Positions 17,365 through 45,472 are shown, counted from the first letter of the stretch. The stretch is 64,000 nucleotides of DNA from an uncultured Chloroflexia bacterium (GCA_963724285.1 CAVRUD010000008.1:6302-70301); one strand, 5' to 3'. Numbers and translations: made by a program. The notes: generated by a model from the sequence alone, not told the origin.

Positions 17365-19947
17365 TTACACGCAGCGGGCGACGTCCCAGAGTAACACCGT
17401 CGTGTCACTGAAGGCGGCCAGCATCGCGCCGTCCGGACTGAATACCACCTCCTGCACTGTATCCTCGAGGCCGGCGAGGGGCTCGCCGAGCGACTGGCCG
17501 GTCGCGGCGTCCCAGAGGACGACCGTCCCGTCGCCGTAGCCCGAGGCCAGCACGCGCCCGTCCGGGCTGAAGGCCGCCACGGGGAGCCCCTGACGAACCA
17601 AGAGGGGCTCGCCGAGGGGCTCGCCGGTGGCCACGTCCCAGAGGATGACCCTCCCGTCCGAGGAGGCCGAGGCCAGCGTGGCCCCGTCCGGGCTGAAGAT
17701 CAGAGCGGACACGCTGTCCGCAGGGTCGGCGGACGGCTCGTTGACCGGCTCGCCGGTGGCCACGTCCCAGAGGACGACCGTCCCGTCGGAGTAGCCCGAG
17801 GCCAGTGTCGCCCCGTCTGGGCTGAATACCACGGAGTACACCGCATCGGTGTGGCCGGCGAGCGGATCGCCCCGCTGCTGGCCCGTGGCCACGTCCCAGA
17901 GGACGACCGTCCCGTCGGAGTAGCCCGAGGCCAGCGTCGCCCCGTCCGGGCTGAATACCACCTGCAGCACCGCATCCCAACGACCGGCGAGGGGCTCGCC
18001 GAGCGGCTCGCCGGCGGCCACGTCCCAGAGGACGACCGTCCCGTCGTAGCCGCCCGAGGCCAGCACGCGCCCGTCCGGGCTGAAGGCTACGGTGTTCGCC
18101 CGGCTCTTCGCATAGCCGGTCGCCCGATCGCCAACACCGTGTCCGTCCAGGAACGGACGGTCCCATTGCTCCTGGCTGGCGACGTCCCAAAGGATGACCC
18201 CGGTGTTGGCGCCCGCGGCCAACGTCGCGCCGTCTGGGCTGAAGGCTACCTCTGCGAAGATGTCTTCGAAGCCCCCGTAGTCCGCGGTGTCGACCAGTAC
18301 CGCGGTTGGTGTCGACGAACCGCACCCGGTGGGTTCTTGCGTGGCCGACGTCGTGTTTGCCGAATCGGTGTCGCCTGAGGCGCCGGGCACTTCGGCCGCT
18401 TCGCTGACGAAGGTCGCCTCGCCGGTCCCCTCCGGCGCGACGGTGACGTCCTGCTCCCGCACCTCCGCCAGCTCGTGCCCCTCGGGAACGCTCTCCTGCC
18501 GGACGACGTAGTCGCCGGCCGGGACGTCGAAGAGGGTCATGTCCCCATCGCCGTTCGTGTCGCAGGCGCGCTCGTCGTAGCCGATGACGGCGTAGCAGGC
18601 GCCGGGGACCGGGTTCCCGTCCGGGTCCGTCGTGGAGGCGACCAGCGCGCCGGGCTCGGGCGCGTTCTCGACGTCGACGCGGGTGGTCTCGCCCGGCTCG
18701 ACGGCGATCGGCTGGTCCGGCCCGGCCTGGTGCCCGTCGGGCGCCTCGGTCTCGACGACGGCGTACTCGCCGGCCAGGACGCGGGTGAAGCGGACCTGAC
18801 CGTCGTCGTCGTCCGCGTCGGCGTCGTCGTCGTCGCAGATCGGCCCGTAGGCGGTCGGACCATCGAGGGCGAAGCACGCCCCGGAGAGCAGCTCGCCCGC
18901 CGGGTCGCGCGTGTTGACCAGGACGCTGCCGGTGGGCGGTTCGGGCGTCTCGGTGGGGGGCGGGGCCGTCGTCGCGGTCGCGGTGGGCGTCTCGGTCGGC
19001 GGCACGGGGGTCTCGGTCGGCGGCACTGTCGCGGTTGGCGTTGCGGTGGGCGGCACGGGCGTCTCGGTGGGCGGGACGGGCGTCGAAAGATCCTCGACCT
19101 CCCCCGGAACCACACCGTTCAGGAAGGGCCGGATCAGGTTGGCAGGGATCAGCCTCGCCCATTGACCGCCAAGGTCGCCCTGCTCGACGCTTCTCACGAT
19201 CCCGACGAGCCCGCCGCCCTCGGCGACCGCCGGCCCCCCGCTGCTGCCGAAGTCGGCCCCGATTCTGACCTGGATCTCTCCAATCTGGGAGCCGTCCTCC
19301 CGACGCGGAAAGCTGGTCACCCCGCCCTCGTCGTTCACCACCGGCCTCGCAAGCAGCTCCTCGGCGTCGTCGGTGCCAAGCCCGGGGAAGCCACTAATCC
19401 GTATCGCGTCGAACTGCCGGACGTCGTCCGAATCGCCGAGTTGGAGGTAATCCAACGTCGGCGTTTCGTCCAAGCGACCGCCGCTGGGACCTCCGACGAC
19501 GCGCAGCAGCGCGACGTCAAGGCGGCAATCCGACCCGTTTGCGACCTCCACGGCCGTGTAGAGCCGGATCGGTGGATCGAAGAGGCTGATCGGGACGTAC
19601 ACGAGGAATCCTGGCTGGATCGTGTAGGTGACAGTCCGGCCTTCGTCGGCAAGAAGTTCGTTCTGCTCGGTGTCGAGCCTGCTTCTCAGGTCGCCCAGGT
19701 CGAGGACGTGGCAGTTGGTCAGGATCAGCCCGCCGGAGCTGACCACGGCGCCGCTGCCCAACGGCACGGTCTCATGGGCGCGCTGAACCCCGTTCTCCTC
19801 GACGTAGACCTGGGCCGCGAGGAGGACCGTTGCCTTCCAGGCGTCGCCGAACGTCACGACCTCCTGCCCCAGAGCCGGTCTCGCGAGGGACCAAGCGAGG
19901 ACGACGAAGACAAGCACCATTCGTCTGCCAAGGTACGTCAACGGCAT
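17365..19947 (-). CDS. secreted multidomain protein: signal peptide, trypsin-like serine protease, Pro/Thr linker, two SpaA/Cna-B-like (prealbumin-fold) domains, WD40 beta-propeller
   Basis: Signal 'VLVFVVLAWSLARPALG'. Triad motifs 'TNCHV', 'DVALL', 'GSSGGP'. 'PPTETPVPPTATPTA...'. 'FTRVLAGEYAVVETEAPDGH' and 'FDVPAGDYVVRQESVPEGH'. Seven or more 'FSPDG..LASG..DGTVVLWDV' repeats. Confidence 0.85.
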   Translation of the reverse strand: MPLTYLGRRMVLVFVVLAWSLARPALGQEVVTFGDAWKATVLLAAQVYVEENGVQRAHETVPLGSGAVVSSGGLILTNCHVLDLGDLRSRLDTEQNELLADEGRTVTYTIQPGFLVYVPISLFDPPIRLYTAVEVANGSDCRLDVALLRVVGGPSGGRLDETPTLDYLQLGDSDDVRQFDAIRISGFPGLGTDDAEELLARPVVNDEGGVTSFPRREDGSQIGEIQVRIGADFGSSGGPAVAEGGGLVGIVRSVEQGDLGGQWARLIPANLIRPFLNGVVPGEVEDLSTPVPPTETPVPPTATPTATVPPTETPVPPTETPTATATTAPPPTETPEPPTGSVLVNTRDPAGELLSGACFALDGPTAYGPICDDDDADADDDDGQVRFTRVLAGEYAVVETEAPDGHQAGPDQPIAVEPGETTRVDVENAPEPGALVASTTDPDGNPVPGACYAVIGYDERACDTNGDGDMTLFDVPAGDYVVRQESVPEGHELAEVREQDVTVAPEGTGEATFVSEAAEVPGASGDTDSANTTSATQEPTGCGSSTPTAVLVDTADYGGFEDIFAEVAFSPDGATLAAGANTGVILWDVASQEQWDRPFLDGHGVGDRATGYAKSRANTVAFSPDGRVLASGGYDGTVVLWDVAAGEPLGEPLAGRWDAVLQVVFSPDGATLASGYSDGTVVLWDVATGQQRGDPLAGHTDAVYSVVFSPDGATLASGYSDGTVVLWDVATGEPVNEPSADPADSVSALIFSPDGATLASASSDGRVILWDVATGEPLGEPLLVRQGLPVAAFSPDGRVLASGYGDGTVVLWDAATGQSLGEPLAGLEDTVQEVVFSPDGAMLAAFSDTTVLLWDVARCV

Positions 19948-19956
19948 GGTCGCCCC

Positions 19957-22162
19957 CTACTCGTCGACGACCTCGAAGCGGAGGAACTCCCCGCCGACCT
20001 GGGCGTAGATGACGGTTACGTTCGGGAATGGCTCGTCCGCCGCGAAAAACACCGGGAATCCGTCGATGCATCGTGAATCGGACAAGCGAGCCGGCGTCGA
20101 CCTCGGTGTCGGATCCCGAAAACCGCAGCTGGATCGGCGTCCCGTTAGGGAGCGTGGTAGAGAGATCCTCCGGGAGCGAGTCGGGTAGCCCGGCGTCGTC
20201 GAGGAGGACATAGCGCTGCAAACCGTCCGGACTTTCAATGAACAGCTCCGGGAAGGGCTGTTCGTCCGTGTTGGTATAGACTGGCTCTCCCTCTCCGGTG
20301 GTCCCGACCTCGAGCAAGTCGGCCGGCGTTCGCTCCGTCTCGATGCCGGCGAACGCGTAGTTTGCTTCCCCCGCCGTCAACTGCCCGAGATCCAAGGACT
20401 CGGCATCGCACGGGGCGATGCCAATTTGGTTATCCGGGCTCTCTGAGGCGGGTGAGGTCACGTCGGCCTCCCCGGTCGTGCTGGGCGTGGCGAATATGCT
20501 GAGGTCGGTCAGGAGTTGGGACAGCGCGGCATCCAGTTCCTCGGCGTTCTGGGCGCCGAGGAGCACGCCGCCGCCGTTGTCGGCGATGCACTGCAGGATC
20601 GCCAGCTCGTCCTGGGCCAGGCCCAGTCCAACGACGTTTACCTGGACGCCCTTGTCGCCCTCGAAGAGCTCGGTGGCAGCGTCGCACGGAGCCTGAACAT
20701 CGTCGTCGCAGGTCTCGAGGCCGTCCGTCACGAGGATGATCGCGTTGGTGATGTCTTCGGCGTCGTCCGGAAAGTCCTCGACCGCGCGCTCCAGAGAGAG
20801 CGCCATGGGTGTCCAACCGACCGGCTCGTAGGAATCAACCTGACTCTGGAGCGCCTCCTTGTCGACGCCTTCGATCGGCACGAGGAGCTCGCTGCTCTGG
20901 CAGCTCTCGGCGCGGCCGGCTGCGGTGTTGTCCGCTTCGTGGCCGAAGACCCGGAAGCCGACGTTGATGTTCGGCTGGTCGTCTGGGATCTGCGTGATGA
21001 CATCCGTCAGGACGCGCTTGGCGGCGTCGATCCTCGGCTCGCCCGTGGTCGTTTCTTCGGCCATCGAGCCAGAGGAATCGAGGATCAGCTCGACGTTGAC
21101 GGTATCCGTAGCGATCGCCTCCGGCTGCGGTGTCTCGGTGGGCGGTTCGGGCGCCTCGGTGGGCGGGGCGGGGGTATCGGTCGGCGGCGGTTCGGGCGTC
21201 TCGGTCGGTGGAGGGGCCGTCGTCGCGGTCGCGGTTGGCGTTGCGGCGGGCGGGGCGGGCGTCTCGGTGGGCGGGGTTGCGAACGGAGTGGCGTACAGGT
21301 CGGGCCGGACCCGCTCAAGCAGCGGGCGTGCCGAGTCGATGGGGATGACCTTCGTCCAGCGACTCCCGAGATCCCCCTCCTCGACGCCCCGGACGACGCC
21401 CACTAGCTCGCCCGAGGCGTCCACCGCCGGGCCGCCGCTGCTGCCATGGTCGGACTGGGCATCCACCCACATGACGCCGCCTTCGAACCGGTTGACTTCT
21501 CCCTCGTCGAACGTGACGGAGCGACCGAACGCGGTCGCGGTTCCGACGTCCGGGTAGCCATAGACGCGGAGGTCGTCGAGGGGGTTGACCGTCTCCGAAT
21601 CCCCGATCGGTAGGAAGGCCATGTCGGGCGCTGCGTTTAGACGACCGCCGAACGGGCCGCCCGTCACCTCGAGCACCGCCAGGTCCTGTGCGCAGTCGCG
21701 GTCAAGGACGGTCGCCGTGTACCGCAGTTGCGGGGGATCCTCGAAACTGACCGGCACGTAGACCTGGAAGATCGCGTCCGGCTCGAAGACCACCTCCCGG
21801 CCCTCTAACTCCTTGAGGCCGCCGGCTTCGGTCGCGAGTTCGCTCTCTAGTTCCGTCAGGTCGACGACGTGGCAGTTAGTCAAGATCAGGCCGTCGGCGG
21901 TGATCACCGCGCCGCTACCCAGCGGCTCCTGCCGGCCCGGCGCCGGCTGCCCGGACTCGGTGACGGAGATGTTGACCGCGAGCAGCACTGTCGCCGTCCA
22001 GGCGCTGTCGACCGTTGCCGCCTCCTGGCCGCCAACAGGGCGGCCGGCCGGGCTGGCGAGGAGCAGCGTAATCATGGGGATCAACAGCGCCATGGCGCCC
22101 AGTTGCAGAAGGCGGGGTTTCGGTCTTTTCAGCGATAAGAACGACGTGTCGCCTGCAGCCAT
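19957..22162 (-). pseudogene. secreted trypsin-like protease, Pro/Thr linker, vWA domain and C-terminal domain; one frameshift near 20080 (or an assembly indel)
   Basis: 'TNCHV', 'DLAVL', 'GSSGGP'. vWA MIDAS 'DSSGSM...GWTPMA...LVTDGLETC'. Frame A turns into Arg-rich junk after 'EVDAGSLV'. Frame B gives 'CIDGFPVFFAADEPFPNVTVIYAQVGGEFLRFEVVDE*', stopping 7 nt before the next gene's ATG. Confidence 0.8.
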
Positions 22163-23109
22163 CACTCCCCCTCGCACTGCGCCCGGGGCACGCCAGCGTC
22201 CGGGACCGCGGGCGACGGCGTCGCCGACGAGGCCGAGAGCCACAACGGTCGCCCCTCCGGCAGTGCGCCGGCCACCAAGACCACCGTGGCCGGTTCCGCC
22301 GCTTGGACCGAGTGGGTTTCGAAGGCCGGGAACAGCCGGCAGCTTCCCTCGCGCAACTCGGCGAGTTCGTCAACCCGGAGCCGCCCGTGCAGCACCGACA
22401 CGGCCACCGGTCCGGGAGAACGGTAGTGCCCCGCGTCGGCCTGGACGTCTGTCCACGACGCGCACGCGAAGAAAAGGCTGAGGCCGGTCGTCGGGAGTGT
22501 ACCGACCTGACCGCTCACGTACACGCGACTATCGAGGCTGCCCTCCGGTGCCGCCGATTCCATCAGGTTGACGTCCGCCTGCCCGCCGGAGTAACCGACC
22601 TCGCTTTCGCGGTCCGACGGCACCAATGCGAGTCGGAGCAGGACCAGCGGCTCCGCCGCCGGGTTCTGGTACCGGTAGAACTGACCGGTCTGCACGAACG
22701 GCGACCCACCGGCGGCGTGCTCGGACGGCTCCCCGTTGACCGAGAACCGGACCGCCCCGCTGACGACGTGGTAGAGCAAAGGGCCGGCGGCGAGCAGTTG
22801 CTCAGTCACGGCTCCAGGCGTCAAGCGGACGTGGCGGACGGTCAGGACCAGGGGCGACCCTTGGCGCGGCAAGTCGTCGACGGCGCCGGAGCCGAGGAGC
22901 ACGACGTCGCTCCCGTCCGGTTTGCCCGTGACCAAGTCTGGTTCCTTTGCCCCCGCGGCTGGTGCGCTCGACGGCGGCGCGGCGGGCGCGCATGCGCCGA
23001 GGAGATCGGTGGGCAGCAAGCCGCTGGCCTCTTCCTGACCCAGCGCGAACGCCCCGTTGAGCAGCGCCAAAGCGAACGAAAGGACGACGGCTCGTGCCGG
23101 CATGATCAT
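22162..23109 (-). CDS. secreted hypothetical protein with two cupin-like halves
   Basis: Signal 'AVVLSFALALLNGAFALG'. 'LTVRHVRLTPGAV...YHVVSGAVRFSVNG' and 'VAVSVLHGRLRV'. Its TGA overlaps the downstream ATG by 1 nt (22162). Confidence 0.6.
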   Translation of the reverse strand: MIMPARAVVLSFALALLNGAFALGQEEASGLLPTDLLGACAPAAPPSSAPAAGAKEPDLVTGKPDGSDVVLLGSGAVDDLPRQGSPLVLTVRHVRLTPGAVTEQLLAAGPLLYHVVSGAVRFSVNGEPSEHAAGGSPFVQTGQFYRYQNPAAEPLVLLRLALVPSDRESEVGYSGGQADVNLMESAAPEGSLDSRVYVSGQVGTLPTTGLSLFFACASWTDVQADAGHYRSPGPVAVSVLHGRLRVDELAELREGSCRLFPAFETHSVQAAEPATVVLVAGALPEGRPLWLSASSATPSPAVPDAGVPRAQCEGE

Positions 23110-23154
23110 CCTCCCCGGTGGCGTCCCACCCTCGTCGGATTGCGTCCCCCGGGG

Positions 23155-23790
23155 CTACCGGTCGACGGCGGTCGCCGACGGTGCCGGTATCCCGAGGCAG
23201 GCCGGGTTGCCCGGGTCGTCGGGGTCGAACGGGGCGGTGTCGGCGAGGTCGAGCACGTGGGTGCCTTCCAGCCCCGCCGCGTCTGCCTCGTCGCCCCCTC
23301 GGTCGGGGACAGCCACCACCCGGACGATCACGCACTCCGGGTATTCCATCGGCGCCTCGGTGGATACCAGCGCGGTGATGCGGTCCGACCGGGTGTCGAA
23401 GTCGATGGTTCCCCACCGGACTGGCGTATCCAGCCGGCGCCGGGTCAGCGGGTCCAGTGTCATCCACTCCAGCGCGACCGGCTGCTCGCCGTCGTCGTAG
23501 CCCTTCGCCTCCACCTCCACGGCGACGACGTTGCTGACGACCTGGTCGGCGCCGATCCGCTGTTCGACGAAGGCGGCGTCGGTGATTTGGACACTCCGTT
23601 CCAAGGCCGGCCCCAGGCCCTTCAGTTCCGGGTAGAGCAGAAAAACGACGGTCAGGAGCGTCGCGAGGGGCGTGACCAACCCCAGCCCCTCCCTGATCAC
23701 CGGCCACATCTTTGGTCCGACGGAGGGCGCGCCGTCCGCATCGGCTCCACCCTGGCGAGGAGACCCGGAACCGCCCGCGCCAGCAGCCAC
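23155..23790 (-). CDS. hypothetical single-pass membrane protein (first gene of the protease operon?)
   Basis: TM 'GLGLVTPLATLLTVVFLLY'. The likely start is 'MWPVIREG' at 23709. No recognisable domain. Confidence 0.45.
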   Translation of the reverse strand: MAAGAGGSGSPRQGGADADGAPSVGPKMWPVIREGLGLVTPLATLLTVVFLLYPELKGLGPALERSVQITDAAFVEQRIGADQVVSNVVAVEVEAKGYDDGEQPVALEWMTLDPLTRRRLDTPVRWGTIDFDTRSDRITALVSTEAPMEYPECVIVRVVAVPDRGGDEADAAGLEGTHVLDLADTAPFDPDDPGNPACLGIPAPSATAVDR

Positions 23791-24565
23791 GCGCCGATCA
23801 CCCCCTGCACGATGGCCTCACGAATAGATTTGATGCTTGTTCGTATCCTACTACAGCGCACCGTCGTCAACAGCCGTACGGGCCATTGTTTGGTGGGCAA
23901 TCGCGTTTGGCGGAATGATGTCAGCGGAGCGGGGCAGGACCGCGGGCCGGGGTGCCGCCTGCCACCCGCGTCCGGCGGTCCCACCCCGCCAAATGCGATT
24001 GCCCTCGCCATGATTGCTGGGCCGGCTCGGGACGAAGAGGCAAACCCACCTTCAACTGCAACGAACGCAACCGCGAGACCGGGCGAGGCGGGTAACGCTT
24101 CAGATAACCAGCCGCCGAGGCATCCCAACTTGGGCAGTTCCGCCATCTTCTATCGCGAGTGGACAGGAAAGGCTGGGCAGTCCGCCGTCGCGACCGGGGG
24201 TACGGTAAACGCGGTGGGCTGCCAAGCTTCTGCTCAATCGTTATTCCCGCGGGGACGCTCCAGATACCTCGGTCGCTAACGCAGACCATGAGATAGAAAA
24301 CAGCATCGAGAAGTGAAGCACGATGCTTTCTCCATCAAACATACATAGTACTTTTGGCATAGTTGACTTTTATGGCAAGAGGACTACCATCGGGGAACCA
24401 GTATCTCAATAAGGAGGGTCCACGAAGCGAGCGAACGGTCGTCCCCGCCCGCTCCTCGTTTGCATGAACGTGTTAAGGAGACTCGTTGCTTGTGCTGTTC
24501 GCGCGACGGCGAGCAGGATGATGCCCGATTGTGCCCGCATGTGAGGCAGGTAAAGGAGATACCTT

Positions 24566-25355
24566 GTGGCGAAGCGAGCGCTGTGCGCCGGGATCAACGA
24601 CTACCCGTATGAGGACAGTGATCTCAACGGCTGCGTCAACGACGCCCAGGCCTGGGCGGAGATGCTGACGCAGCACTTCGACTTTCCGATCGACGACGTC
24701 CGCGATCATCACCGACGCCGAGGCGACGAAAAAAGGAATCCTGACCGAACTGAAAGCGCTGCTCAAGGGGGCAAAGAAGGGCGACGTCCTCGTCTTTACC
24801 AACTCCTCGCACGGGTCGTATCTGCTCGACCGGAGCGGGGACGAGATGAAGTACGACCAGGTCCTCTGCCCGCACGACATCGCCGACAACGTGATCCTCG
24901 ACGACGAGCTGCGCGAGCTCTTCGCCGCGACACCGAGCGGCGTCCAGCTCGTCGCGCTCCTGGACAATTGCCATTCCGGTGGTGGAACGCGGCTGCCGAC
25001 AAAGACAAGGCGGCGCCGTTTCCTCGATCCCGAGAAACGCGGTGACCCGACGCTTCCCGACGACGCTGTTGGCTCGCCCACCACGGGCGCCGAGAACTAC
25101 CCGGAGTCGGGCATGCGGGAGATCTTGCTGAGCGGCTGCATGGCCCACGAGTCCTCCTACGACGACCTGATCGGTGGCCGCTACCACGGTGCTATGACCT
25201 ACTACGCGCTCGAGACGATCCGGAACGCCGACTATAGGCTGACCTATACGCAACTGCACAATCGACTGGGCAGAGTGCTGACCGATGAGCGCTACGACCA
25301 GCATCCCCAGTTGGAAGGAACGGACGAGAATAAGGCGCGGCAGGTCTTCGCCTGA
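24566..25355 (+). pseudogene. peptidase C14 caspase-like protease, 1-nt frameshift near 24704
   Basis: 'KRALCAGINDYPYEDSDLNGCVNDAQAWAEML' (frame of 24566). Then 'IITDAEATKKGI...GDVLVFTNSSHGS...VALLDNCHSGG' (frame of 24846), which carries the His/Cys dyad. AGGAG RBS 8 nt before the GTG. Confidence 0.8.
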
Positions 25356-25387
25356 CGAGTGGGATCCGACGGCTGGCCTGACGCTGA

Positions 25388-28300
25388 TTGGATGAAGGCA
25401 TGACCCGCGATCGGGGGATCATCGACCGCCTCGAGGAGGCGGACGCGGACGAGTTAGCGGAGATCCTGCTCGGGGCCGGGCGCGCCGAGCAATCGGATCT
25501 GTCTGCTCACCTCGGCAAGGAACGCTTCCACCGGATGCGCTCCCTGGCGTTGCAGCGGCCGAGGTCACGATCGGCCGCGACTGCCGTTTGGGGGAACGTG
25601 GTCGTCCTGCACGGTTTCTTGGGCAGTTCGCTGACTGCCTACGACCGACCGGAGGGCGACGAGCAGATCTGGATCGATGTCCGGCGGATTGGGCTGGGGC
25701 AGCTCTCGCTGCTGCGGCTCGGGCCGGACGGTCGTTCGCCCTACCACCCGGGCACCGATATCCGCGCAAGCGGCATCATGAAACGCACCTACGGGGAGCA
25801 GCTCCTCGCCCTCGCGAAGAATTGGACGGTCCGCGCATTCCCGTTCGATTGGCGCAGGGACGTGGACTCGGCCGCGGACGAGTTGAACTCCCAGCTCAAT
25901 GACTGGTTCGCGGCCGGTGACCCTGTCCACCTGATCGCGCACGGCATGGGTGGGTTGGTCGCCAGGGCATTCATCCGCAAGTACCCGGCTCGGTGGCGAT
26001 CGATGTGGGACCATCCGGGCGCCGGGAAGCGGGGCGGGCGCCTCATCATGCTCGGGACGCCCAACCACGGGTCATTCGCGATCCCCCAGACGATCGTGGG
26101 GATCGAACCGATCGTCATCAAGCTCGCCGTTCTTGACCGGCGCAACGATCTCAACGGCCTGCTCACCATCATTAACTCCTTCGTCGGGATCTATCAGATG
26201 CTCCCGTCGCCGCTGGTGCTGCCGGCGATGGAACGTCTCTATCAGGCTGAGACCTACGGCAATCTCGGTGTGCCCCAGGTGCCCCAGGCGCACCTGTCCG
26301 CGGCTCTCCGTCACCACGAGCGACTCGCCGACGTTATCGAGCCAGACCGGATGATCAACGTTTTGGGGAACGATCAGCCCACCTTCTCGAACATCACCCG
26401 ATTCGAGGGTCTTAAAGACGTGGCATCGTACGGCGTCACCCCCATGGGTGATGGCCGCGTGACGCATCAGCTTGCCCAATTGACGGGCGTGAGCGCCTAC
26501 TTCGTCGACGACGACAGCGGCGACCTACCCTCGAATGGCAGGGTCATCGCCGCTCTCGACGACCTGCTCACGACCGGCAAGACAGGTCGGTTACGGCCTG
26601 GATCAACCACGATCCGTTCGCGCTGGGGTTCCCAGTTGGAGCGTGAGGCCCGCGAACGGCTCGTGCAAGAGGTGGGGACGCACCGAACGAAGCTGGGATC
26701 GCTCCTCGATTACTCCAGGGCGTGGCGCACGATCGTCGAGGATCGTCCCTCGACACGCCGAAGGGCCGGCGATCGTAGTGGTCCGGGGCTGGATGAACCG
26801 GACGACGCGTTCGCGGAGGAGCCGGAGATCGTCGAGGTGCTGACGCATGGGGTCCTCGCCTCTCGGGGCGGGCCCAAAGTCGATTTCGCGAACCCGCGAA
26901 GTACCTCTGAGCCGCCGACGATCGAGTTCCAAATCTTTGGAGGCAGCATCGACGAGCTGGACCTGGTCAATACCGGGCCCGTCGGACCCTCCGAGCGATC
27001 ACTCGAAGAGATCCGCCAGTTGGAAGCGCAAGGGGGAGTGCCAGAGTGCCCCATCGACGTGATCGCCGTGGGTCACTACGAGAGAACCCGGCCCGAGGGG
27101 GCCGAGCTCGTGCTCGACAGGGCCATCAGCGGCGTCGTTCCCGGCAGACCCGATGATCTACGCGGCCGGTCGTCGGATTCCAATTTGCTTCTGACGCTCT
27201 TCGCCGAGCGGGGCACCATCCGCGGTGAACTTGGCCAGGTTTTCCTGCTGCCCGATCCGCGACGCGCGTCGACGCGCGGAGCCGTAGCGCGCTGCAATCG
27301 TGATATCGCCGTTGTCGGACTGGGCGTCCCCGGCCGGTTCGGCGCTCCGGAGCTGAAGGTCCTTGCGCGTGAGCTCTGCTGGACACTAGGCAGGATGGGG
27401 AAGCGGCACCTGGCTACGGTCTTGATCGGGTCCGGTGTCGGGAATATCGATGCCGGCGAAGCGACTTCGGCATGGATCGCCGGGATCAAGAATGCGTTGA
27501 CCGGATCGACCATGGACGACGACCGAAAGCTGCGCCGGGTGACGTTCGTCGAACGCGACCCGGACAAGATCCTCGCCATGGCGGCCGCAATCGTGAACGA
27601 ACAGGAACAGTTGCGCACGCGAGATCGCATGAGAATATCCTTCGCGCAACCCCCCGCCGAACGGATGAAACGCATTCGCAGGTGGTGGACATCCACGAAG
27701 CAGCAGGAGGAGAAGGAACGAGATGAGCTCCTTTCAATGATCCATCCCAGCTGCCTCCGACCTGGCTGACGGTCACGGTCGGAAAGGAAGGGTATCGGTA
27801 CGGCGCCATCACCGATACCGCGTCGATTCCTGAGCGAGAAGTCCCCCTCAACGTGGCGCGGATTCACAAGGCTAACGACAACCTGGCGGCGGCGCCGGAT
27901 CTCGGCCTCCAACTGGAGCACGGGCTCTTCCTCAAGAAGCTGGCGCTACCGAGGGACCTGACCGGTCATCTTGCGACCGCGGCGCCGCTCGTCTTGATGC
28001 TTGACGCGGCAACGGCGCGGGTCCACTGGGAAATGATGGCGCAACCTGACCCGTTCGATCGTTCGGACGGATTCGACGTTCCGGACGATGACATGGTTGA
28101 CGGGGCTGGAGACGCCCACGCAGAGGAGACCATCGAGCGGTTCCTCGGGATCACGCGCGGAGTTACGCGCCAGTTGCGCACGGCGTTTGCTCCGCCTCCG
28201 GACCCACCCCCACCCCCGCGGCGGCGACTGCGGGTCCTGATCGTGGCCGATCCGGCCGAGGACGACCCGTTGGAAGGAGCCCAGGAAGAAGGAGCCGCGG

Positions 28301-29039
28301 TCGCCGCTCTCTTCGAACAGTTCAACGCCCTCCACGGTGCGTTCGGCGATTCCGAACCGAATGGAAACAACGTGGACCGGGGAAAAGCGAGAACCGGGTC
28401 GAGGTCGTAGGCCTTTTCGGGCCGTACGAGGCGACCTTGGACGAGGTCCTCCGGCATCTCGTCCAACGCTCGTACGACGTTCTTCACTTCGCTGGGCATT
28501 GCATCTACGACAAGAAGCGGCCGTCGGCATCTGGATGGATCTTCTCCAACGGTGAACGGCTGACCGCGAACGAACTCGACCGGATCGATCGTATCCCGAA
28601 GTTCGTCTTCTCGAACGCCTGCGAATCCGGGATCACGCCGGATCGTTCCGGGAGCCGATCGGTGGAGTTGGCTCCGAGCTTCGCGGAGGCGTTCTTCGCA
28701 CGTGGGGTTTCGAACTTCGTCTGCACCGCGTGGCCCGTGGACGACGGCGCGGCGCGCAATTTCGCCCTCACGCTCTATCGAGGCCTCCTCGGGCTCAAGC
28801 CCGTGGACGGTCAGCCGAACGCCTACGAACCGACGACGCCGTTGCACATGCACCGCGCGATGCAGCAGGCACGGCGCGCCGTCGCGGCGCAGCCGCGTGG
28901 CTACCGAACCTGGGGCGCCTACCAGCATTACGGCAGCCCGTACCTGCGGTTCTTCGAGCCATCGCCTACGGCGGAGAGGAGGCGATCGGCCAAAACGAAC
29001 CGGGATGCGATTGGCGTTTCACCGATCGCCGAGGGCTAG
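25388..29039 (+). pseudogene. ~1,210-aa LCAT/lipase-like alpha/beta-hydrolase, macro-like (M17-N-like) domain and CHAT protease; two frameshifts (near 27730 and 28380)
   Basis: 'VVVLHGFLGS', 'FPFDWRRD', 'LIAHGMGGLV'. 'IDVIAVGHYE...LDRAISG...RGELGQVFLLP...IAVVGLG'. 'TWLTVTVGKEGYRYGAI...' continues in the frame of 27853. 'ENRVEVVGLFGPYEATLDEVL...LHFAGHC...FSNACESG' is in the frame of 28437. Confidence 0.8.
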
Positions 29040-29383: not shown

Positions 29384-30211
29384 ATGGCTGAGCAAACTCC
29401 AGGAACAACCGTTATCGATCCATCTGGGAACTACGGGCCGACCGAGCACGGTGACATCCATCCGGACGAAGGGTCGCGGCGGATGCTCACGAGCGCCGTC
29501 TGGGGGAACGTCCCCATGTTCGTCTCCTCCGAGAACGGCATGGACGTTACCCCATGGAATCCGGACTGCTCCTGGTACCAGTACGGGACGCACTACTGCC
29601 TGAACGGCTGCCAGCACCCGGGGATGGACATCAGCATGGTGGAGGGCACCGCGCTCTTCGCGGCGGCCGGTGGACAGGTGGTTTTCTCCGGGAATGATGG
29701 ATTCTACGCGCCGCTCCACGTCAACATCCTCGCGGCGAACGGCGAGGTCCACATCTACGGCCACCTGTCGAGCATCGACCCGAACGTCTTTGCCGGCGCC
29801 CACGTGCAGGCCGGCCAGTTCCTCGGCGGATCGGGCTCGATGAACGGCGGTCACCTCCACTTCGAGCGGCGCGTGCCGAACGGCAACTGCGGCTCCGGGT
29901 TCAGCGCCGACGATCCCACCTCCGTCCTGACCGACGCCCCCCAAGCCGGGGACCAGCCGGTACCCCAGGCCGGCTTTGCGGCAGGCGATCGCATCAACGT
30001 CGTCGACCCACCGCTGCGCTTCCGGGACGGGCCTGGAACAGGGAGCAACGTCATCGAGGAGCTCCCGCTCGGCACAGAGCTCTGCGTGGTGGGCGGACCC
30101 CAGCAGGCCGACGGGTACGACTGGTACCAGGTCTCCCGTCCCGAGAGCGGGGCGCAGGGCTGGGTGGCGGGGAGCTTCTGCGGCCTCGTCGCGGCGCAGG
30201 GCTGCCAATAA
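29384..30211 (+). CDS. M23 (LytM-type) metallopeptidase with C-terminal SH3b-like domain; no signal peptide seen
   Basis: 'HPGMDI' (HxxxD), 'GHLHFE' (HxH), C-terminal 'VVDPPLRFRDGPGTGSNVIEELPLGTELCVVGGP...YDWYQV'. Confidence 0.85.
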   Translation: MAEQTPGTTVIDPSGNYGPTEHGDIHPDEGSRRMLTSAVWGNVPMFVSSENGMDVTPWNPDCSWYQYGTHYCLNGCQHPGMDISMVEGTALFAAAGGQVVFSGNDGFYAPLHVNILAANGEVHIYGHLSSIDPNVFAGAHVQAGQFLGGSGSMNGGHLHFERRVPNGNCGSGFSADDPTSVLTDAPQAGDQPVPQAGFAAGDRINVVDPPLRFRDGPGTGSNVIEELPLGTELCVVGGPQQADGYDWYQVSRPESGAQGWVAGSFCGLVAAQGCQ

Positions 30212-30535: not shown

Positions 30536-32321
30536 ATGATTTCGCGTCTGCTCTCCGCCGTGGCAACGGCGGTCGACCACCGCATCGGCTGGCATCGGCT
30601 GCCGACGCCGCTCGGCCTGCTCGCGTTGATGGGCATCCGGGGTAGGCTGCGAGAACGCAATCTGGTCGACACGGCTTCGGCAACCCAACGCCAGCAACCC
30701 GAGCCCGCCCCTTGGCCCGGCCACCGAACCACGCGCGCGCCGGACGGAACGTTCAACGATCTCGGGCAGCCGCGCATGGGCGCCGCGGGCACCCGGTTTG
30801 GCCGCAACGTTCCCCTCAGAGAAACGTCCCCGGATCGCGCCCGGATGCTCCAACCCAACCCGCGTACCGTGAGCCGCGAGTTGCTGACCCGGGACGAGTT
30901 CGTCCCGGCCACGACGCTGAACGTGCTCGCCGCGTCCTGGCTCCAGTTCATGATCCGCGACTGGTTCAGCCACGGGAAGAGCCCAAAGGAGAACCCCTGG
31001 GAGATCCCGCTCGCGCCAGACGACCCCTGGCCAGAGCGGCCGATGCGGGTCATGCGGACCCGGCCCGATCCGACCCGCAGCCCCGAGGAGGACGCGGCGG
31101 GCCTGCCGCCCACCTACGTCAACGTCGAGACCCACTGGTGGGACGGGTCACAGCTCTACGGCAGCGACGCCGAGACCCAGGCCCGGGTCCGCACCGGGAG
31201 CGGCGGCACGCTGAAGATCGGCGCCGACGGGCTGATCCCGGTCGACCCGCGGAGCGAGAAACATCCGGCAGACGAGCCCGGCTTCTGGGTCGGGCATCGC
31301 GATGATGCACACCCTGTTCACCCGCGAACACAACGCCATCTGCGACCGTCTCCGCGCCGAATACCCGACCTGGACGGACGACGAACTCTTCGAGCACGCG
31401 CGCCTCGTCAATGCCGCGCTGCTGGCCAAGATCCACACCGTTGAATGGACGACGGCGATCCTCGGGCACCCTGCCCTTCAGATCGGGATGCGCGCGAACT
31501 GGTGGGGCCTGGCCGGGGAGCGCATCAACCGGCTCGTCGGGCGCCTCAGCGACAGCGAAGCGATCAGCGGCATCGTCGGCGGGCCAACCCACCACTTCGA
31601 CGTCCCGTACTCGTTGACCGAGGAATTCGTCGCGGTCTACCGGATGCATCCCCTCATCCCCGACGACTACACCTTCCGTTCGTCGGCCACGGACGATCTG
31701 CTGCAAAACCGGCAGTTTGCCGAGATCTCCGGTCGGAAGGCCCTGGAGCTTATCGGCGCCGTCCCGATGGCAGACCTCTTCTATTCCTTTGGCATCGCCC
31801 ATCCAGGCGCGGTGACGCTCCACAACTTCCCACGCGGTTTGCAGTTCCTGGAGCGGGAGGACGGCATCGTCCAGGATCTGGCGGCCGTCGACATCCTGCG
31901 CAGCCGCGAGCTCGGCGTGCCGCGCTACAACCGATTCCGCCGGCTGTTGCACCTCACGCCGATCGAAAGCTTCGACGAGTTGACCGACAACCCGCGCTGG
32001 CGGGAGGAACTGCGCCGCGTCTACGACAACGACGTCGAGCTGCTCGACCTGACGGTCGGAATGTTCGCCGAGCGAGTGCCGAAGGGGTTCGGTTTCAGTG
32101 ACACCGCCTTCCGGATCTTCGTCCTGATGGCCTCGCGCCGGCTCAACAGCGACCGCTTCTTCACGACGGATTTCACCGCCGACGTCTATACCCAGGTGGG
32201 ATTGGACTGGATCGCCAACAACGACATGTCGACCGTCTTGAGGCGGCACTACCCTGGGTTGGCCCCGGCCCTGCGCGGTGTCCGTAACGCGTTCGCGCCG
32301 TGGACACGGGTGACGGCCTAA
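30536..32321 (+). pseudogene. haem peroxidase-superfamily enzyme (cyclooxygenase / alpha-dioxygenase-like), frameshift near 31295
   Basis: 'LAASWLQFMIRDWFSHG', then 'GFWVG' | 'IAMMHTLFTREHNAICDRL' across two frames. 'TEEFVAVYRMHPLIPD', 'DLAAVDILRSRELGVPRYNRFRR'. Confidence 0.85.
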
Positions 32322-35487: not shown

Positions 35488-38274
35488 TCAAGAGGACGAG
35501 TAGGAGGCACTTGGCGCCGCCTCGTCTGCCCAGGCGAGCGCTTCGGCCAGAGCGACCTCTTCGGGGAGACCTCGACCGATCGCCCACGCCTCCGCGAAGG
35601 CCGCCTCCCCGAGTCGCTCGCGCAATTCGTTCTGAAACAGGTCGTAGTCCTCGCGTTGCTCGATCGCAACCGGCTCGCCGATGGCCTCGCGGATGGCGGT
35701 GGCCGCGGCCAACCATCGGGCCGCCGCGCCCGGATCCCCCGCCCGGCTCGCCAGCTGCCCCAGCCCTTCCAGCCCGAAGGCGACGCCAGACCGGTCCCCC
35801 AGGTCCCGGAACGCGACCAGCGCCTCCGCGAACAGACCCACGCCCCGCCCGTCCTCCCCCCGATCCCGGGCGACGCAGCCCAGGTTGTTCAACGCGACCG
35901 CCGTGTTTTCCGGGTCGCCCGCGCCGCGGAAGAGTCCCAGGGCCTCCTCGAAGCGGGCGGCGGCAAGCGGGAGATCCCGTTCGGTGAGGGCCATGCTTCC
36001 CAGCATGTTGAGGCAGACGCCCGCGCCGACCGCGTCGCCGGCGGCCCGCTTCAGTGCCAGTCCCTCCTCCACCAACTCGACCGCTCGCGCGCGGTCACCT
36101 CGTGCGTACGTCGCGTCGCCGAGGACGTTGAGGATCGATCCGACCTGCGGGCCGTCGCCCGCGGCGCGCGCCAGCAGCAACGCCTCATCGAGGACCTCCG
36201 CCGCGCCGTCGGCATCCCCGAGGAACTGGCGCACCACCCCGAACGTGTAGAGGGCCCGCGCCGTGGTCCGCTGGTCGCCGGCCTCCCGCGCCGCCGCGAC
36301 GGCCGCCTCGGCGTGCACGGCCGCGACGCGGTGGTCGCCCTGGGCGCGGGCCAGCATCGCCGCCCCCGTGCGCGCCGCCGCCACGCCACCGGCCGGTGCG
36401 CCGGTGCTGACGGCGAGCGCACGGTCGAGCCAGCGGCGACCCTCGGCGAAGTGGCCCCGGGTGTACCAGAACTGGCTGAGGTTGGTCGCGAGCCGCAGCG
36501 CCGTCTCGTCCCCGTCCCGGTCGACGGCCCAGCCGAGCGCCGCGCGGAGGTTGTCGTGGTCGGACTCCAAACGGTCGAGCCAGACGTGCAGCTCGTCGCC
36601 GTAGCGGCGCCGCGGGACGTCGCCGCCGGACAGCTCCAGGAAGAACCGGGCGTGGCGCCCCCGGATCGCCTCGCCCTCGCCGCTGGCCGCCAGCCGCTCG
36701 GCGGCGTACTCCCGGATCGTCTCCAGCATCGCGAAGCGGGGCTCGCCCTCGGTCCGCTCCTGCCGCAGCAGGCTCTGCCGGACCAGCGCCGCCAGCGCCT
36801 CGTAGGGGTCAACCTCCCCATCCCCGGCGGCCACCGCCTCGACCGCCTCGAACGAGCACCCCCCGGCGAAGACGGCCAGGCGGCGGAAGGCGACCTGCTC
36901 CGCCGGCGCCAGCAGGTCGTGGGACCAGGCGATCGCCCCCCGCAGGGTCCGCTGCCGCTCGGGCAGGTCGCGCGCCCCGCCGGTCAGCACGGGGAGGCGC
37001 TGCTCCAGGCGGCGCAGCAGCGCCTCCGGCGGGAAGAGTTTCGCTCGCGCCGCCGCCAGCTCGATCGCCAGCGGCAGCCCGTCCAGGCGCCGCGCGATCC
37101 CGGCGAGCGTTCCGGCGTTGGCCTCCGTCAACGCGACGTCCGCCCCGGCCGCCCGCGCCCGCGCCAGGAAGAGCGCCACGGCCGGCGCGGCGGCGACCTG
37201 CTCGGCCGTCCCGGCGGCGGGGGGTACCGGCAGCGGGCCGACGGCGACCTCCTCCTCGGCCCGCACCCCCAGCGGCGCCCGGCTCGTGGCGAGCACCGCC
37301 AGGTCCGGGGCGGACGCCAGCAGGCCGGCGAGCTCCCCGGCGGCGCCGAGGACCTGCTCCAGGTTGTCCAGGACCAGCAGCAGCCGGCGCGGGCGCAGGT
37401 ACGCCTGCAGCTCCTCGGCCAGGGGCCGATCGCCCCCCTCCCGCACGCCGAGCGCGGTGGCCACGGCCGGCAGCACCAGCGCCGGGTCGGTCACCGGCGC
37501 CAGGTCGACGAACACCGCGCCGTGCGGGAAGTCCCCGGCCGCCGCTCGGGCCGCCTCCAGCGCCAGGCGCGTCTTGCCCGCGCCGCCCGGGCCCGTGAGC
37601 GTCAGCAGCCGCGCGCCGCCCGCCAGGCGGCGCGCGATGTCGGCGAGCTCGGCCTCCCGGCCGAGGAGGGCGGTCGGCGGGACGGGCAGGTCGGCCCGGG
37701 CGGAGCCGGTCACATCGGCCGTCGCGTGCGGGGTCCCCCGCCCCGGGATGGCGCCGACGCGGTCCAGCGCCCGCAGCGCCGCCGGCAGCCATTCCCTCTC
37801 CGGGCGGTCGAGGACGTCGATCCACTGCGCCCCCTCCAGCCAGTAGGCCAGGGCGTCCGGGAACGCGACCGCTTCCAGGCGCAGCGGCAGGACGGGGCGG
37901 CCGAAGCGCCAGGCGAGGGCGATCTCCTGACGCACGTTGCGTGAGGCCAGCGAGGTGGCCGAGCACAGCAGCACCAGCGCGCCGCACCCCCGGATCCCGT
38001 CGACGATCTCCGGCCCGTAGCTCTGCCCGCCGGCGATGCCGGCGACGTCGATCCAGGCGGGCACCCCGGCGCCCTCCAGCGCCCGCGTCACGGCCAAGGC
38101 GTGCGGCCGGTCGGCGCTGGCGTAGCTCACGAAGACGTGGGGAGGCGGGTCGGCGCCCAAGGAGGGTTCGTCGGCTGCGATGGGGTCTGGCGGCAGCGGC
38201 TCGGACACGGCTGCGTCCTTTGGCGGCGACAGAATGCGTGCTGCCATTTTGTGGAACCCAATCGTCCCCGTCAA
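35488..38274 (-). CDS. TIR-domain / STAND (NB-ARC-like) NTPase / TPR-repeat protein, apparently intact
   Basis: TIR 'HVFVSYASADR...LLCSATSLASRNVRQEIALAW'. Walker A 'GPGGAGKTRLA', Walker B 'LLLVLDNLEQ'. Long C-terminal TPR array ('NLGCVARDRGE..', 'NMLGSMALTE..', 'NVLGDATYARGD..'). Confidence 0.9.
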   Translation of the reverse strand: MTGTIGFHKMAARILSPPKDAAVSEPLPPDPIAADEPSLGADPPPHVFVSYASADRPHALAVTRALEGAGVPAWIDVAGIAGGQSYGPEIVDGIRGCGALVLLCSATSLASRNVRQEIALAWRFGRPVLPLRLEAVAFPDALAYWLEGAQWIDVLDRPEREWLPAALRALDRVGAIPGRGTPHATADVTGSARADLPVPPTALLGREAELADIARRLAGGARLLTLTGPGGAGKTRLALEAARAAAGDFPHGAVFVDLAPVTDPALVLPAVATALGVREGGDRPLAEELQAYLRPRRLLLVLDNLEQVLGAAGELAGLLASAPDLAVLATSRAPLGVRAEEEVAVGPLPVPPAAGTAEQVAAAPAVALFLARARAAGADVALTEANAGTLAGIARRLDGLPLAIELAAARAKLFPPEALLRRLEQRLPVLTGGARDLPERQRTLRGAIAWSHDLLAPAEQVAFRRLAVFAGGCSFEAVEAVAAGDGEVDPYEALAALVRQSLLRQERTEGEPRFAMLETIREYAAERLAASGEGEAIRGRHARFFLELSGGDVPRRRYGDELHVWLDRLESDHDNLRAALGWAVDRDGDETALRLATNLSQFWYTRGHFAEGRRWLDRALAVSTGAPAGGVAAARTGAAMLARAQGDHRVAAVHAEAAVAAAREAGDQRTTARALYTFGVVRQFLGDADGAAEVLDEALLLARAAGDGPQVGSILNVLGDATYARGDRARAVELVEEGLALKRAAGDAVGAGVCLNMLGSMALTERDLPLAAARFEEALGLFRGAGDPENTAVALNNLGCVARDRGEDGRGVGLFAEALVAFRDLGDRSGVAFGLEGLGQLASRAGDPGAAARWLAAATAIREAIGEPVAIEQREDYDLFQNELRERLGEAAFAEAWAIGRGLPEEVALAEALAWADEAAPSASYSSS

Positions 38275-38646
38275 CCTGTGGCCGATGATCGACCTACGAC
38301 ACGCGCCGCAACGACTTAATACACAGCGCGGGCTGGGAAGTGATTCCCGGCCCGCGTTGATTGCGTCAGTTCGCGCCGCCTAGAGGTTGTCGCCTCCACC
38401 CCCGCGACATTGTTAGAGACTCCGTTGTTGATCGCCCCGTCCGTGTTGTTGAAGTATGCGAGGTCCACCTCGATCATGCTGCCGATGACAAGCACAAAGC
38501 GGGTGTTGTCCAGCGTCGCGTTGCCCCGCACCGTCGCGAAGCTGAGCACAGCGCCCTCCGCCGTTCTGGTGAACGCATCTGTATCGACCGCGCGATATGA
38601 TAGGATCGCGTACTGTCCGTACACCCCGAGCCGCGAGGTTAATGCT

Positions 38647-43950: not shown

Positions 43951-44022
43951 GCGATCCGTCGGCTACCGCCGCGATCCGTCGGCTACCGCCGCGATCCGGC
44001 GGCTACCGCCGCGATCCGTCGC
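43951..44022. repeat. 20-bp tandem repeat, about 3.6 copies
   Basis: 'gcgatccgtcggctaccgcc' x3 (one g/t variant) plus a partial unit. Overlaps the stop region of the SDR pseudogene. Confidence 0.9.
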
Positions 44023-45472
44023 AACATCCCGGCGAAGATGAGCCGGTGAATGGGATACGTGACGTACCAATACGCGAGACCGCCGAGGCCCACCGGGTCG
44101 AAGATCGCCGTCTGCCTTATCGTCGACCCGGCGCCGTCCGGCGCGATTTCGAATTCCAGCCAGGCGCGCCCGGGCACCTTCATTTCCGCGAACAGGCGCA
44201 GGCGCCGGTTCGGCTCGATCGCCTCGACCCGCCACCAATCGACCGCGTCGTCCACCCGAAGCCCCACGGGATCGCGTCGCCCGCGCCGCATCCCGACCCC
44301 GCCGACGAGCAAATCGAGGAATCCGCGCAGACGCCAGAGCCAGGTGGCGTAGTACCAGCCCGCTTCGGCCGCCGATGCGCGCGATCGGCGCAAACGCGTC
44401 GGCGGGCGCGACCGGAACCGTCACCGTCCGCGAATCGACCAGACGACTCCCGAACCGGACCCCGCCCCAGTCACGGCGCTCGCCGTTCGCCGAGAACGCA
44501 TCGGACCAGCGGGTGACGGCATATTCCCGGTCCTCGTTCGCAATCGCCTGCGCCATCGCCTCGTCCACGCCGCGCGGAGTAATGGGGAACGCGTGTCGCG
44601 CGGACTCGTCACGCACCACGGTGGGAACCGTGATGCTGTCGATCAGCTTCCGTCCGACGCGGGCGTACAGCGGCGTGACCAGCCGAGCCAGAGACTGGAA
44701 AGCCGGGGGGTCAACACCGGGACGGGAATCATCAGCCGCCGCAGCCCGCGTTGGCGCGCATACGCCCGCATGAGATCGCCAAACGAGACGCGATCGGCGC
44801 CGCCGATTTCGTACATCGCGGCTCCCTCCGACGGAGGTCCACCGCGGCTACCAGGTACGCCAGCAGGTCGGCGATCCCAATCGGTTGCGTCTTCACGGCG
44901 ACCCACCGGGGCGTGATCATCACGGGCAGGCGCTCGACCAGGGCGCGGATCATCTCGAACGACAGACTGCCCGAGCCAAGGACGACCGACGCCCGGAACT
45001 CGATCACCTCGACGCCCGAAGCGCGCAACAGGTCGCCGACCTCCTGCCGGCTGCGCAGGTGCGGTGAGGCGGCGCTACCGGCATCACCCAGCCCGCCCAG
45101 GTAGATGATGCGCCGGACGCCGGCGGCGCGCGCGGCGGCTCCGAAATGGCGCGCGGCCGCGCGGTCGTGCTCTTCGAACCCCTCCGCCAGTCCCATGCTG
45201 TGGACGAGGTAGTAGGCGATATCGCCGCCCGCCATCGCCCCCGAGAGGCTCGCGGGGTCCGACACGTCGGCGAACGCGACCTCGGTGCTCGGCCCGACAC
45301 GAGAGCGCAGCGCCTCGGGCCGCCGCGTCAGGCAGCGCACGCGCTGCCCCGCCGCTTCCAATTGCGTCAGCAACCGGCCACCGACGTACCCGGTCGCCCC
45401 GGTCAGGAGGATCAACGGTGGGGCGGAGGCCGCCCCCGGCGGGTCGACCGGCGGGCCGGTGTGGGTCATCAT
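43983..45472 (-). pseudogene. NAD(P)H-binding SDR-family / DUF2867 protein broken by about 3 frameshifts (near 44835, 44685, 44360)
   Basis: 'ILLTGATGYVGGRL' ... 'MYEIGGADRVSFGDLMRAYARQRGLRRLMIPVP' ... 'LVTPLYARVGRKLIDS...' ... 'GWYYATWLWRLRGFLDLLVGGVGMRRGRR...AWLEFEI' across four ORF-track frames. Confidence 0.75.

Follow-up and report, generated by a model that had tools for sequence, protein, structure and literature searches.

Do two protease genes that lie side by side in an uncultured Chloroflexia bacterium form a proteolytic cascade, and if so, which part of the pair receives the signal? The genes occupy positions 24566 to 29039 of a stretch of 64,000 nucleotides (nt) with a G+C content of ~69% (GCA_963724285.1 CAVRUD010000008.1:6302-70301; hereafter the window, meaning the whole stretch analysed). 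The first encodes a caspase-like peptidase of family C14 and the second a giant protein with a lipase-like, a macro-like and a CHAT protease domain. An earlier reading of the sequence alone (hereafter the original prediction) had proposed a two-protease cascade in which the input module would be lipase-like or macro-like rather than SAVED, and the motifs on which it drew (SSHGS, DNCHSGG, FPFDWRRD, AHGMGG, LHFAGH and SNACESG) were all found in the window sequence at the coordinates given. We hold with moderate confidence that the locus is a two-gene operon of a minimal metacaspase-type C14 protease and a lipase-macro-CHAT giant. By analogy with known systems, the pair may act as a two-tier cysteine-protease cell-death or immunity module in which CHAT would activate C14, a proposal that we consider evenly balanced.

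The giant is encoded on the forward strand by three open reading frames (ORFs) in three different frames (25388-27769, 27853-28410 and 28437-29039). Joining the segments 25388-27730, 27727-28386 and 28386-29039, with junctions at 27727-27730 and at 28386, yielded a protein of 1,218 amino acids (aa). Over 100 uninterrupted proteins, each 1,100-1,250 aa long, aligned with it at 97-99% coverage and 45-53% identity. Because the alignment with these intact homologues runs from end to end, the three-frame read-through is real and not a chance concatenation, and the predicted single protein stands. The family comprises at least 584 clusters, and a scan of one genome per species recovered relatives in 475 genomes belonging to at least eight phyla, including Acidobacteriota, Chloroflexota, Actinomycetota, Gemmatimonadota, Myxococcota, Planctomycetota, Verrucomicrobiota and Proteobacteria among others, while a search of viral contigs recovered none. 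Source annotations describe these proteins as 'CHAT domain-containing protein' or 'pimeloyl-ACP methyl ester carboxylesterase'. NCBIfam gave no match to the giant, Pfam nothing for aa ~400-860, and a search of PDB sequences with the giant's profile no matches, although fold comparison did work; no paper on the lipase-macro-CHAT architecture was found in the literature searched. The giants are a large, phylogenetically broad and unannotated cellular family without a curated family model.

To describe the overall architecture, a full-length AlphaFold2 (AF2) model was made of P0004, an intact homologue that is 50% identical to the window giant and whose gene lies beside a C14 gene (predicted local distance difference test, pLDDT, 86; predicted template modelling score, pTM, 0.77). 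The model shows, in order, a four-helix N-terminal bundle (aa 4-59), an alpha/beta hydrolase, a long helix with a disordered linker, a macro-like domain, a second disordered linker and a bipartite CHAT module, the two linkers appearing as regions of low pLDDT at aa 461-486 and aa 751-766. The corresponding parts of the window giant are an N-terminal helical bundle of ~60 aa (25388-25573), an LCAT/LPLA2-like alpha/beta-hydrolase domain (25574-26602), a long helix and disordered linker with a conserved SxEERxxEExLTRGFL helix (26603-26908, from the alignment and the homologue model), a macro/M17-aminopeptidase-N-like domain (26909-27661), an N-terminal, pseudo-protease-like half of the CHAT module (27727-28386) and its catalytic half (28386-29039). 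The three domain assignments of the original prediction (LCAT-like, macro/M17-N-like and CHAT) were upheld by profile and/or fold using Pfam, AF2 and Foldseek. The helical bundle has no Pfam match, and its interpretation as a shared EAD-like adaptor was rejected: a hidden Markov model of the domain found nothing in neighbouring genes and the Pfam EAD models gave no match.

The hydrolase is identified by a Pfam LCAT match at aa 143-232 of the giant (1e-5, 25.4 bits, cut-off 21) and, in the P0004 model, by Foldseek matches in the PDB to LPLA2 (4x92, 4.8e-10, template modelling score TMt 0.63), LCAT (6mvd, 7e-8), the type VI secretion system effector Tle4 (4r1d) and bacterial lipases. In the family consensus the nucleophile elbow reads AHSMGG and the Asp lies within GDG(R/T)V, as is typical of LCAT and LPLA2. 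Based on 119 aligned family members, from which the residue counts for the giant are derived, Ser186 is present in 110 (absent from nine), Asp355 in all 119 and His377 in 117 (absent from two). Since the triad is kept in >90% of members and the best fold matches are phospholipases, the domain reads as an effector rather than a sensor; the suggestion that it is the input module is therefore unlikely to hold in general, and in most members it probably is an active lipase or acyltransferase that would attack membranes as a second effector. It differs from LCAT/LPLA2 and Tle4 in being fused within a giant cytoplasmic protease. The window copy is unusual in that its elbow reads AHGMGG, with Gly186 (25943-25945) in place of the nucleophile and Ser377 (26516-26518) in place of the His, Asp355 being retained within GDGRV. 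Given the Ser to Gly and His to Ser substitutions, the window hydrolase is not catalytic but a pseudo-enzyme, and as judged from these residues it can only be structural. A catalytically dead hydrolase is confined to the window copy and a minority of relatives, and eight intact relatives also carry Gly186, so dead variants are tolerated. A systematic loss of the triad in C14-linked giants was ruled out, Ser-Asp-His being present in 14 of 16.

For the macro-like domain, aa 508-758 of the window giant were modelled with AF2 from an alignment of 47 trimmed homologues; MAFFT alignments of full-length homologues, in which the query ends were stretched, had been dropped. The model (pLDDT 87.4, pTM 0.85) is a three-layer alpha/beta/alpha macro fold with 298 Foldseek matches in the PDB at E ≤ 1e-3 (probability 1.0, TMt 0.6-0.7). 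N-domains of M17 leucine aminopeptidases rank first (8pzm, 6e-8; PepA 1gyt, 8e-8), closely followed from 4e-7 by true macrodomains (Trypanosoma cruzi 5fsz, PARP14, PARP9, macroH2A and Af1521). The 50 matches listed are mainly of these two kinds and also include a mitoribosomal chain, SPX-domain entries and a designed hydrolase; the full-length P0004 model likewise matches PepA and macrodomains. The M17 N-domain call of the original prediction is thus right at the level of the fold, though without a sequence-profile match. Invariant features include VGHY, the charged residues E573, D577, R608, D623 and R625 and a GxGxGN loop; in the set of 119 members Y564 and N686 never vary and H563 is present in 117. 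The domain directly precedes CHAT and is retained in the minimal macro-CHAT forms described below, and it is the best candidate for a regulatory module that would bind a ligand or a partner.

The CHAT domain matches Pfam PF12770 over aa 862-1185 (6.8e-25, 88.5 bits, cut-off 24), and its catalytic residues His1039 (28497-28499, in LHFAGHC) and Cys1080 (28620-28622, in SNACESG) are invariant (119/119). In the model of the homologue P0004, on which the fold match rests rather than on the window protein, the C-terminal ~550 aa match Csx29 (8eex_B, 1.5e-9), separase (9hn5, 2.8e-8), DdvA and the SAVED-CHAT filament (8tl0, 3.6e-4), and the matches to Csx29 and separase extend to the pseudo-protease-like half.

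The C14 gene lies upstream on the same strand and its reading frame is interrupted once. The 5' segment (24566-24703, aa 1-46, with a GTG start) aligns with the N-termini of nine orthologues and halts after ...DFPIDDVR; the protein continues one frame over as IITDAEATKKG... in the 3' segment (24705-25355), where both catalytic residues lie (His in SSHGS, Cys in DNCHSGG) and which ends at the stop codon. The break is ascribed to a single extra G at ~24704 (CGC-G-ATC, adjoining a GATC site), because all nine orthologues read DVR-(I/L)(I/L)T without an extra residue. The repaired protein is a bare caspase domain of 262 aa without additional domains. It matches Pfam Peptidase_C14 (PF00656) over aa 3-252 (4e-26, 92.6 bits, cut-off 21.4), and the family profile matches plant, yeast and trypanosome metacaspase structures in the PDB at 1e-27 to 3e-37, in agreement with the C14 assignment made from the motifs. 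The dyad motifs SSHG and DNCHSG do not vary among 10 orthologues, and across 80 sequences their conservation is ≥90%. A basic motif, RRxRFxxPxxxG, follows ~13 residues past the catalytic Cys; the close orthologues all share it, and it too is ≥90% conserved in the 80 C14 sequences. Caspases and metacaspases are usually processed in the inter-subunit linker, which is where this motif sits, and the RRxRF linker is a candidate cleavage site. None of the positions at which its nine orthologues are invariant is changed in the window C14. From its stop codon at 25355 to the TTG start of the giant at 25388 there are 32 nt, or 44 nt if the ATG aligned with the homologues' start is taken instead.

Whether the two genes belong together was assessed from both sides. 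A total of 82 giant loci were examined, comprising the best 80 from the species-representative scan and two from contig look-ups. Of 72 related genome loci, about 11 have C14 directly ahead of the giant: orthologues 52-62% identical to that of the window precede the giant on the same strand in L001, L003, L004, L006, L007, L020, L026 and L028, an M23 gene lies between the two in L030 and L032, and in L052 the C14 gene is at the contig edge. In a phylogenetic tree, the C14-linked giants form one main clade mixing Chloroflexota and Actinomycetota, plus scattered or distant cases. Intact orthologue pairs include L001, L004, L007 and L131. Reciprocally, a metagenome search with the C14 alignment returned at least 588 relatives, the best 80 of which were kept (49-60% identity); among the 62 loci with at least 400 nt of downstream sequence, 30 had a CHAT-type gene starting within 900 nt, or ~35 if more distant or Pfam-only cases are included. 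The 30 downstream genes encode LCAT-like giants in 13 loci (including DUF7379-LCAT-macro-CHAT(-TPR-S) forms of 1,475-1,863 aa), macro-CHAT proteins of ~600 aa in four, and short or otherwise unclassified CHAT proteins in 13, complete examples of which measure 385-490 aa. The larger giants, in L118 (2093-6517, at least 1,475 aa) and L132 (5779-11367, 1,863 aa), add an N-terminal DUF7379 hydrolase-like domain, and that of L132 also a C-terminal TPR-S sensor repeat. As CHAT genes are rare in genomes, this adjacency is far above chance, and C14 and giant are recurrent neighbours in genomes other than the one studied, many of them from soil bacteria. C14 proteins are 54-64% identical whichever CHAT partner follows, the partners being 33-53% identical or short CHAT proteins. 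The conserved unit is C14 plus CHAT, with variable N-terminal modules on the CHAT protein, and C14 is a clade-specific partner of the giant rather than a defining part of it.

A second arrangement was found in 12-13 giant loci from four phyla (L002, L009, L024, L033, L050, L057, L058, L060, L068, L070, L072, L074 and L080), where the giant is the first gene of an operon with a SIR2_2 protein (~316 aa) and an nSTAND1-WD40 NTPase (~890 aa), separated by intergenic gaps of 4-45 nt. C14 is absent from these operons, and the remaining giant loci have no conserved partner. Some C14 relatives are directly followed by other genes, such as an Amidase_2-C14 fusion (L116, 6888-9707), a patatin (L104, 1442-2692) or an EAD1-trypsin gene (L136, 3051-4829), and some have housekeeping genes downstream. 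Radical SAM, LpxD and LpxB genes adjoining many of the giants were rejected as parts of the system; their clusters occur in Acidobacteriota loci only (Pyrinomonadaceae and Blastocatellia) and hence reflect phylogenetic synteny.

The closest precedent is SAVED-CHAT/PCaspase, which has been reported in seven genomes in total, among them Haliangium ochraceum, in type III-B CRISPR/CBASS loci; there, SAVED-CHAT binds cyclic tri-adenylate (cA3), polymerises and cleaves PCaspase into a promiscuous protease, leading to abortive infection (Steens et al., bioRxiv 10.1101/2023.06.23.546230). Both systems encode a CHAT protease with a non-protease N-terminal module beside a small Peptidase_C14, and the P0004 CHAT fold matches the SAVED-CHAT filament as given above. 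In contrast, the N-terminal modules of the giant are LCAT-like and macro-like, with SAVED absent according to Pfam, PADLOC and fold; the PCc-sigma, PCi and PCk genes are absent here; C14 is directly adjacent upstream, whereas three genes intervene in the known system; and the giant family occurs in 475 species-representative genomes as opposed to seven genomes. By analogy the C14/giant pair would work like SAVED-CHAT/PCaspase, but it is not a member of that system. Ten window ORFs scanned with PADLOC, together with the two proteins themselves, contained no cas, cyclase or SAVED component, which is not an exhaustive scan of the window; within that scope the original statement that cas, CBASS and cyclase genes are absent holds, in keeping with a CHAT/C14 pair that works without SAVED. 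No Cas10/CD-NTase or cas gene was present in the Pfam-annotated recurrent neighbour clusters (representatives of C1, C2, C4 and C5) of the 82 loci either.

Other systems resemble parts of the locus. The best structural matches of the CHAT module, separase and Csx29 (the TPR-CHAT protease of Craspase in type III-E CRISPR), share with it the His in HxAGH and the Cys in NACxSG, but the giant lacks a TPR arm and is accompanied neither by a gRAMP/Cas7-11 partner nor by Csx30/31 substrate genes, and its regulation must differ. Borvo, a single-gene CHAT anti-phage system, shares the C-terminal CHAT, and its BovA model gave the sole PADLOC match to the giant, a weak, partial one (4e-6) over ~120 aa of the catalytic region; the N-terminal architecture is different and Borvo has no C14 partner. 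In type II Thoeris a Macro-domain effector senses histidine-ADP-ribose (His-ADPR), and in type IV Thoeris the TIR signal N7-cADPR activates a caspase-like protease (bioRxiv 10.1101/2024.10.24.620036). The likeness to Thoeris is conceptual, in that a macro fold or a caspase-family protease receives a signal derived from nicotinamide adenine dinucleotide (NAD), and the sibling giant operons carry SIR2_2, which is predicted to consume NAD, along with a STAND sensor. Unlike Thoeris, the C14/giant operon has no TIR gene, and its macro-like domain is nearer to M17-N and without recognisable ADP-ribose-binding motifs.

The recurrent C14-CHAT pairing makes a proteolytic cascade plausible. The cytoplasmic CHAT giant would be a regulated initiator, with the macro-like domain as a ligand- or partner-binding regulator of CHAT. 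Upon activation CHAT would process the C14 zymogen, most likely at the conserved RRxRF linker past the catalytic Cys, and the processed C14 would be a promiscuous Arg/Lys-specific executioner that drives the cell into dormancy or death, for example upon phage infection. In most members an active LCAT-like domain could act on membranes as a second effector. A bolder version, which we regard as improbable, has the giants as signal-gated initiators of a caspase cascade that would be widespread and would depend on neither CRISPR nor CBASS: a small nucleotide-derived messenger would bind to the macro-like domain, whereupon CHAT would cut the metacaspase at RRxRF and free or activate the phospholipase, giving a three-armed suicide module that would mirror the initiator and executioner caspases of animals. 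In the giant-SIR2-STAND operons an NAD-derived signal is conceivable, and the messenger could there be a breakdown product of NAD that SIR2 releases once the STAND-WD40 protein has detected an invader.

Several observations weigh against the proposed cascade. That CHAT cleaves C14, and that cleavage runs in this direction, we infer purely by analogy. Around 65% of the sampled giants have no C14 beside them, and roughly half of the C14 relatives have no CHAT gene next to them. A mirror-tree comparison of the two proteins gave a weak signal (Pearson 0.23, Mantel p ~0.05, Spearman ~0). The macro-like domain gave no sequence match to Pfam Macro or Peptidase_M17_N even at E ≤ 1 and has no recognisable canonical ADP-ribose-binding GGG/Nx6GG loop; its role may be purely that of a scaffold. 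The locus fits no known defence-system model, PADLOC reporting only domain-level 'caspase' and BovA, and the neighbours in the window do not resemble a classical defence island. The window copy itself may be a pseudogene.

This last point bears on the window locus more than on the family. Should the frameshifts be real and the hydrolase dead, the two genes would be a decaying pseudogene pair and nothing would work in this host, whatever the family does elsewhere; we consider this unlikely. The interruptions of the giant are a 1-nt deletion within 27727-27757, shifting frame 2 to frame 1 (the frame-2 ORF continues to a stop at 27769, and the conserved PT(R/W)xT of the homologues is in frame 1 from ~27757), and a 1-nt deletion in GGGG/AAAA homopolymer runs at 28366-28390, shifting frame 1 to frame 0, where the SENRVEVV motif of the homologues resumes. 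Together with the extra base in C14 there are three frameshifts in the 4.47 kb locus, against at least 4-6 in the other 59.5 kb (~1 per 10-15 kb; Poisson P(≥3) ~0.004-0.02). Frameshift candidates elsewhere were counted only where one Pfam domain was split over two frames, detectors based on third-position GC content (GC3) being too noisy alone. They include an animal haem peroxidase gene (30536-32321, +), in which a frameshift near 31240-31440 separates An_peroxidase positions 2-213 from 222-522; a methyltransferase gene (1616-2539, +) with Methyltransf_11 positions 2-59 and 54-95 in different frames; a NAD_binding_10/DUF2867 gene (43986-45568, -) spread over 2-3 frames; and, very probably, a gene for a regulator with helix-turn-helix (HTH)-AAA/NB-ARC and TPR-LuxR parts (46905-49645, +). 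At 178 near-invariant columns the window giant has six deviations (R794W, D823N and R1019L among them) compared with a family median of one, which ties it for second-highest of the 119 members, its branch is somewhat longer than that of its sister L001, and both Ser186 and His377 are substituted. On the other hand, the contig is demonstrably indel-prone: all disruptions seen in it are 1-nt indels, with neither nonsense codons nor other deletions. Because only indels occur, site 3 falls in GGGG/AAAA runs and site 1 abuts GATC, the pattern has the signature of an indel-prone consensus, and the three frameshifts are more likely to be consensus errors of a long-read-like assembly than true decay, although consensus errors are an unlikely source of the two catalytic-residue substitutions. 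Moreover, C14 retains all residues invariant in its orthologues, the CHAT dyad is intact, and the Gly nucleophile recurs in the eight intact relatives.

If the genes are functional, their wiring could be reversed or parallel. C14 could act upstream, cutting the disordered linkers of the giant to release lipase and/or CHAT, or independently of it, or the two could be parallel effectors with a shared trigger and no cross-cleavage. The two low-confidence linkers between hydrolase, macro-like domain and CHAT in P0004 would suit such a scheme, as would the position of C14 as the first gene of the operon; its steady identity across CHAT partners suggests a core enzyme that stays the same while its partners or substrates vary, and the patatin and EAD1-trypsin genes provide other effectors after C14. 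We nevertheless find this arrangement quite unlikely, as the sole experimental precedent runs from CHAT to C14, the strongly conserved basic motif of C14 is in the classical inter-subunit linker, the usual place of zymogen processing, and C14 has no sensor domain of its own. It is also possible, with a low probability in our view, that the module is not immune at all and serves regulatory or developmental proteolysis in soil bacteria whose lifestyles are complex, comparable to HetF, a CHAT protease of cyanobacterial cell division, or to metacaspases in stress responses. The short CHAT and macro-CHAT partners have weak NCBIfam matches to HetF, giants are absent from viral contigs, housekeeping genes predominate in the neighbourhoods, which are conserved within Acidobacteria (LpxD, LpxB, radical SAM), and the ten PADLOC-scanned window ORFs contain no known defence system; in addition, peptidoglycan enzymes recur near C14, namely M23 in L001, L030, L032, L085 and the window, the Amidase_2-C14 fusion in L116 and a penicillin-binding protein in L153. 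Against this, a patchy, clade-crossing distribution with variable partners is typical of conflict systems, the tight SIR2_2 and nSTAND1-WD40 operons of 12-13 giants sometimes lie beside TIR genes, and a phospholipase with two caspase-family proteases is a typical suicide-effector set.

Of the genes around the pair, one may be accessory. A Peptidase_M23 + SH3 gene without an obvious signal peptide (window 29384-30211, +) recurs in one sub-clade beside the C14/giant pair, where it follows the giant or separates it from C14 (L001, 11599-12405; L030, 5569-6321; L032, 5505-6251; L085, 1437-2222), and is tentatively regarded as an accessory gene of that sub-clade; its product, as a peptidoglycan hydrolase, may be the third component. 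In the metagenome locus L160 a C14 orthologue is also followed by an intact peroxidase, which belongs to the family of the frameshifted one in the window.

Further genes of the window are recorded as separate observations. A TIR_2-AAA/NB-ARC-TPR protein of ~960 aa, similar in layout to nucleotide-binding leucine-rich-repeat receptors (NLR-like), is encoded 6.4 kb downstream of the locus (35488-38379, -), and its gene is not in the recurrent neighbour clusters of related loci. Upstream, two adjoining large trypsin-domain genes (17365-19956 and 19772-22243, both -) encode Trypsin_2-SpaA-WD40 and Trypsin_2-VWA with a Pro/Thr-rich linker, their stop-to-stop ORFs overlapping by 185 nt. Two coding-like ORFs at 22162-23154 and 23155-23817 (-) share a frame and are one stop codon apart; they correspond to a cupin-domain protein and a 211-aa protein without a Pfam match, and may be two genes or one with an in-frame stop.

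Activation of a caspase-like protease by CHAT has so far been documented for one rare system, SAVED-CHAT/PCaspase. The same two-protease pairing is common, since about half of the assessable loci among the at least 588 C14 relatives in metagenomes adjoin a CHAT gene, and it is modular, extending from CHAT alone through macro-CHAT and lipase-macro-CHAT to larger forms. If the proposed cascade is true, the family would offer a new sensor candidate in its macro/M17-N-like domain and a fusion of protease and lipase as effector, and the logic of initiator and executioner proteases would be no peculiarity of CRISPR but a strategy of bacteria in general.

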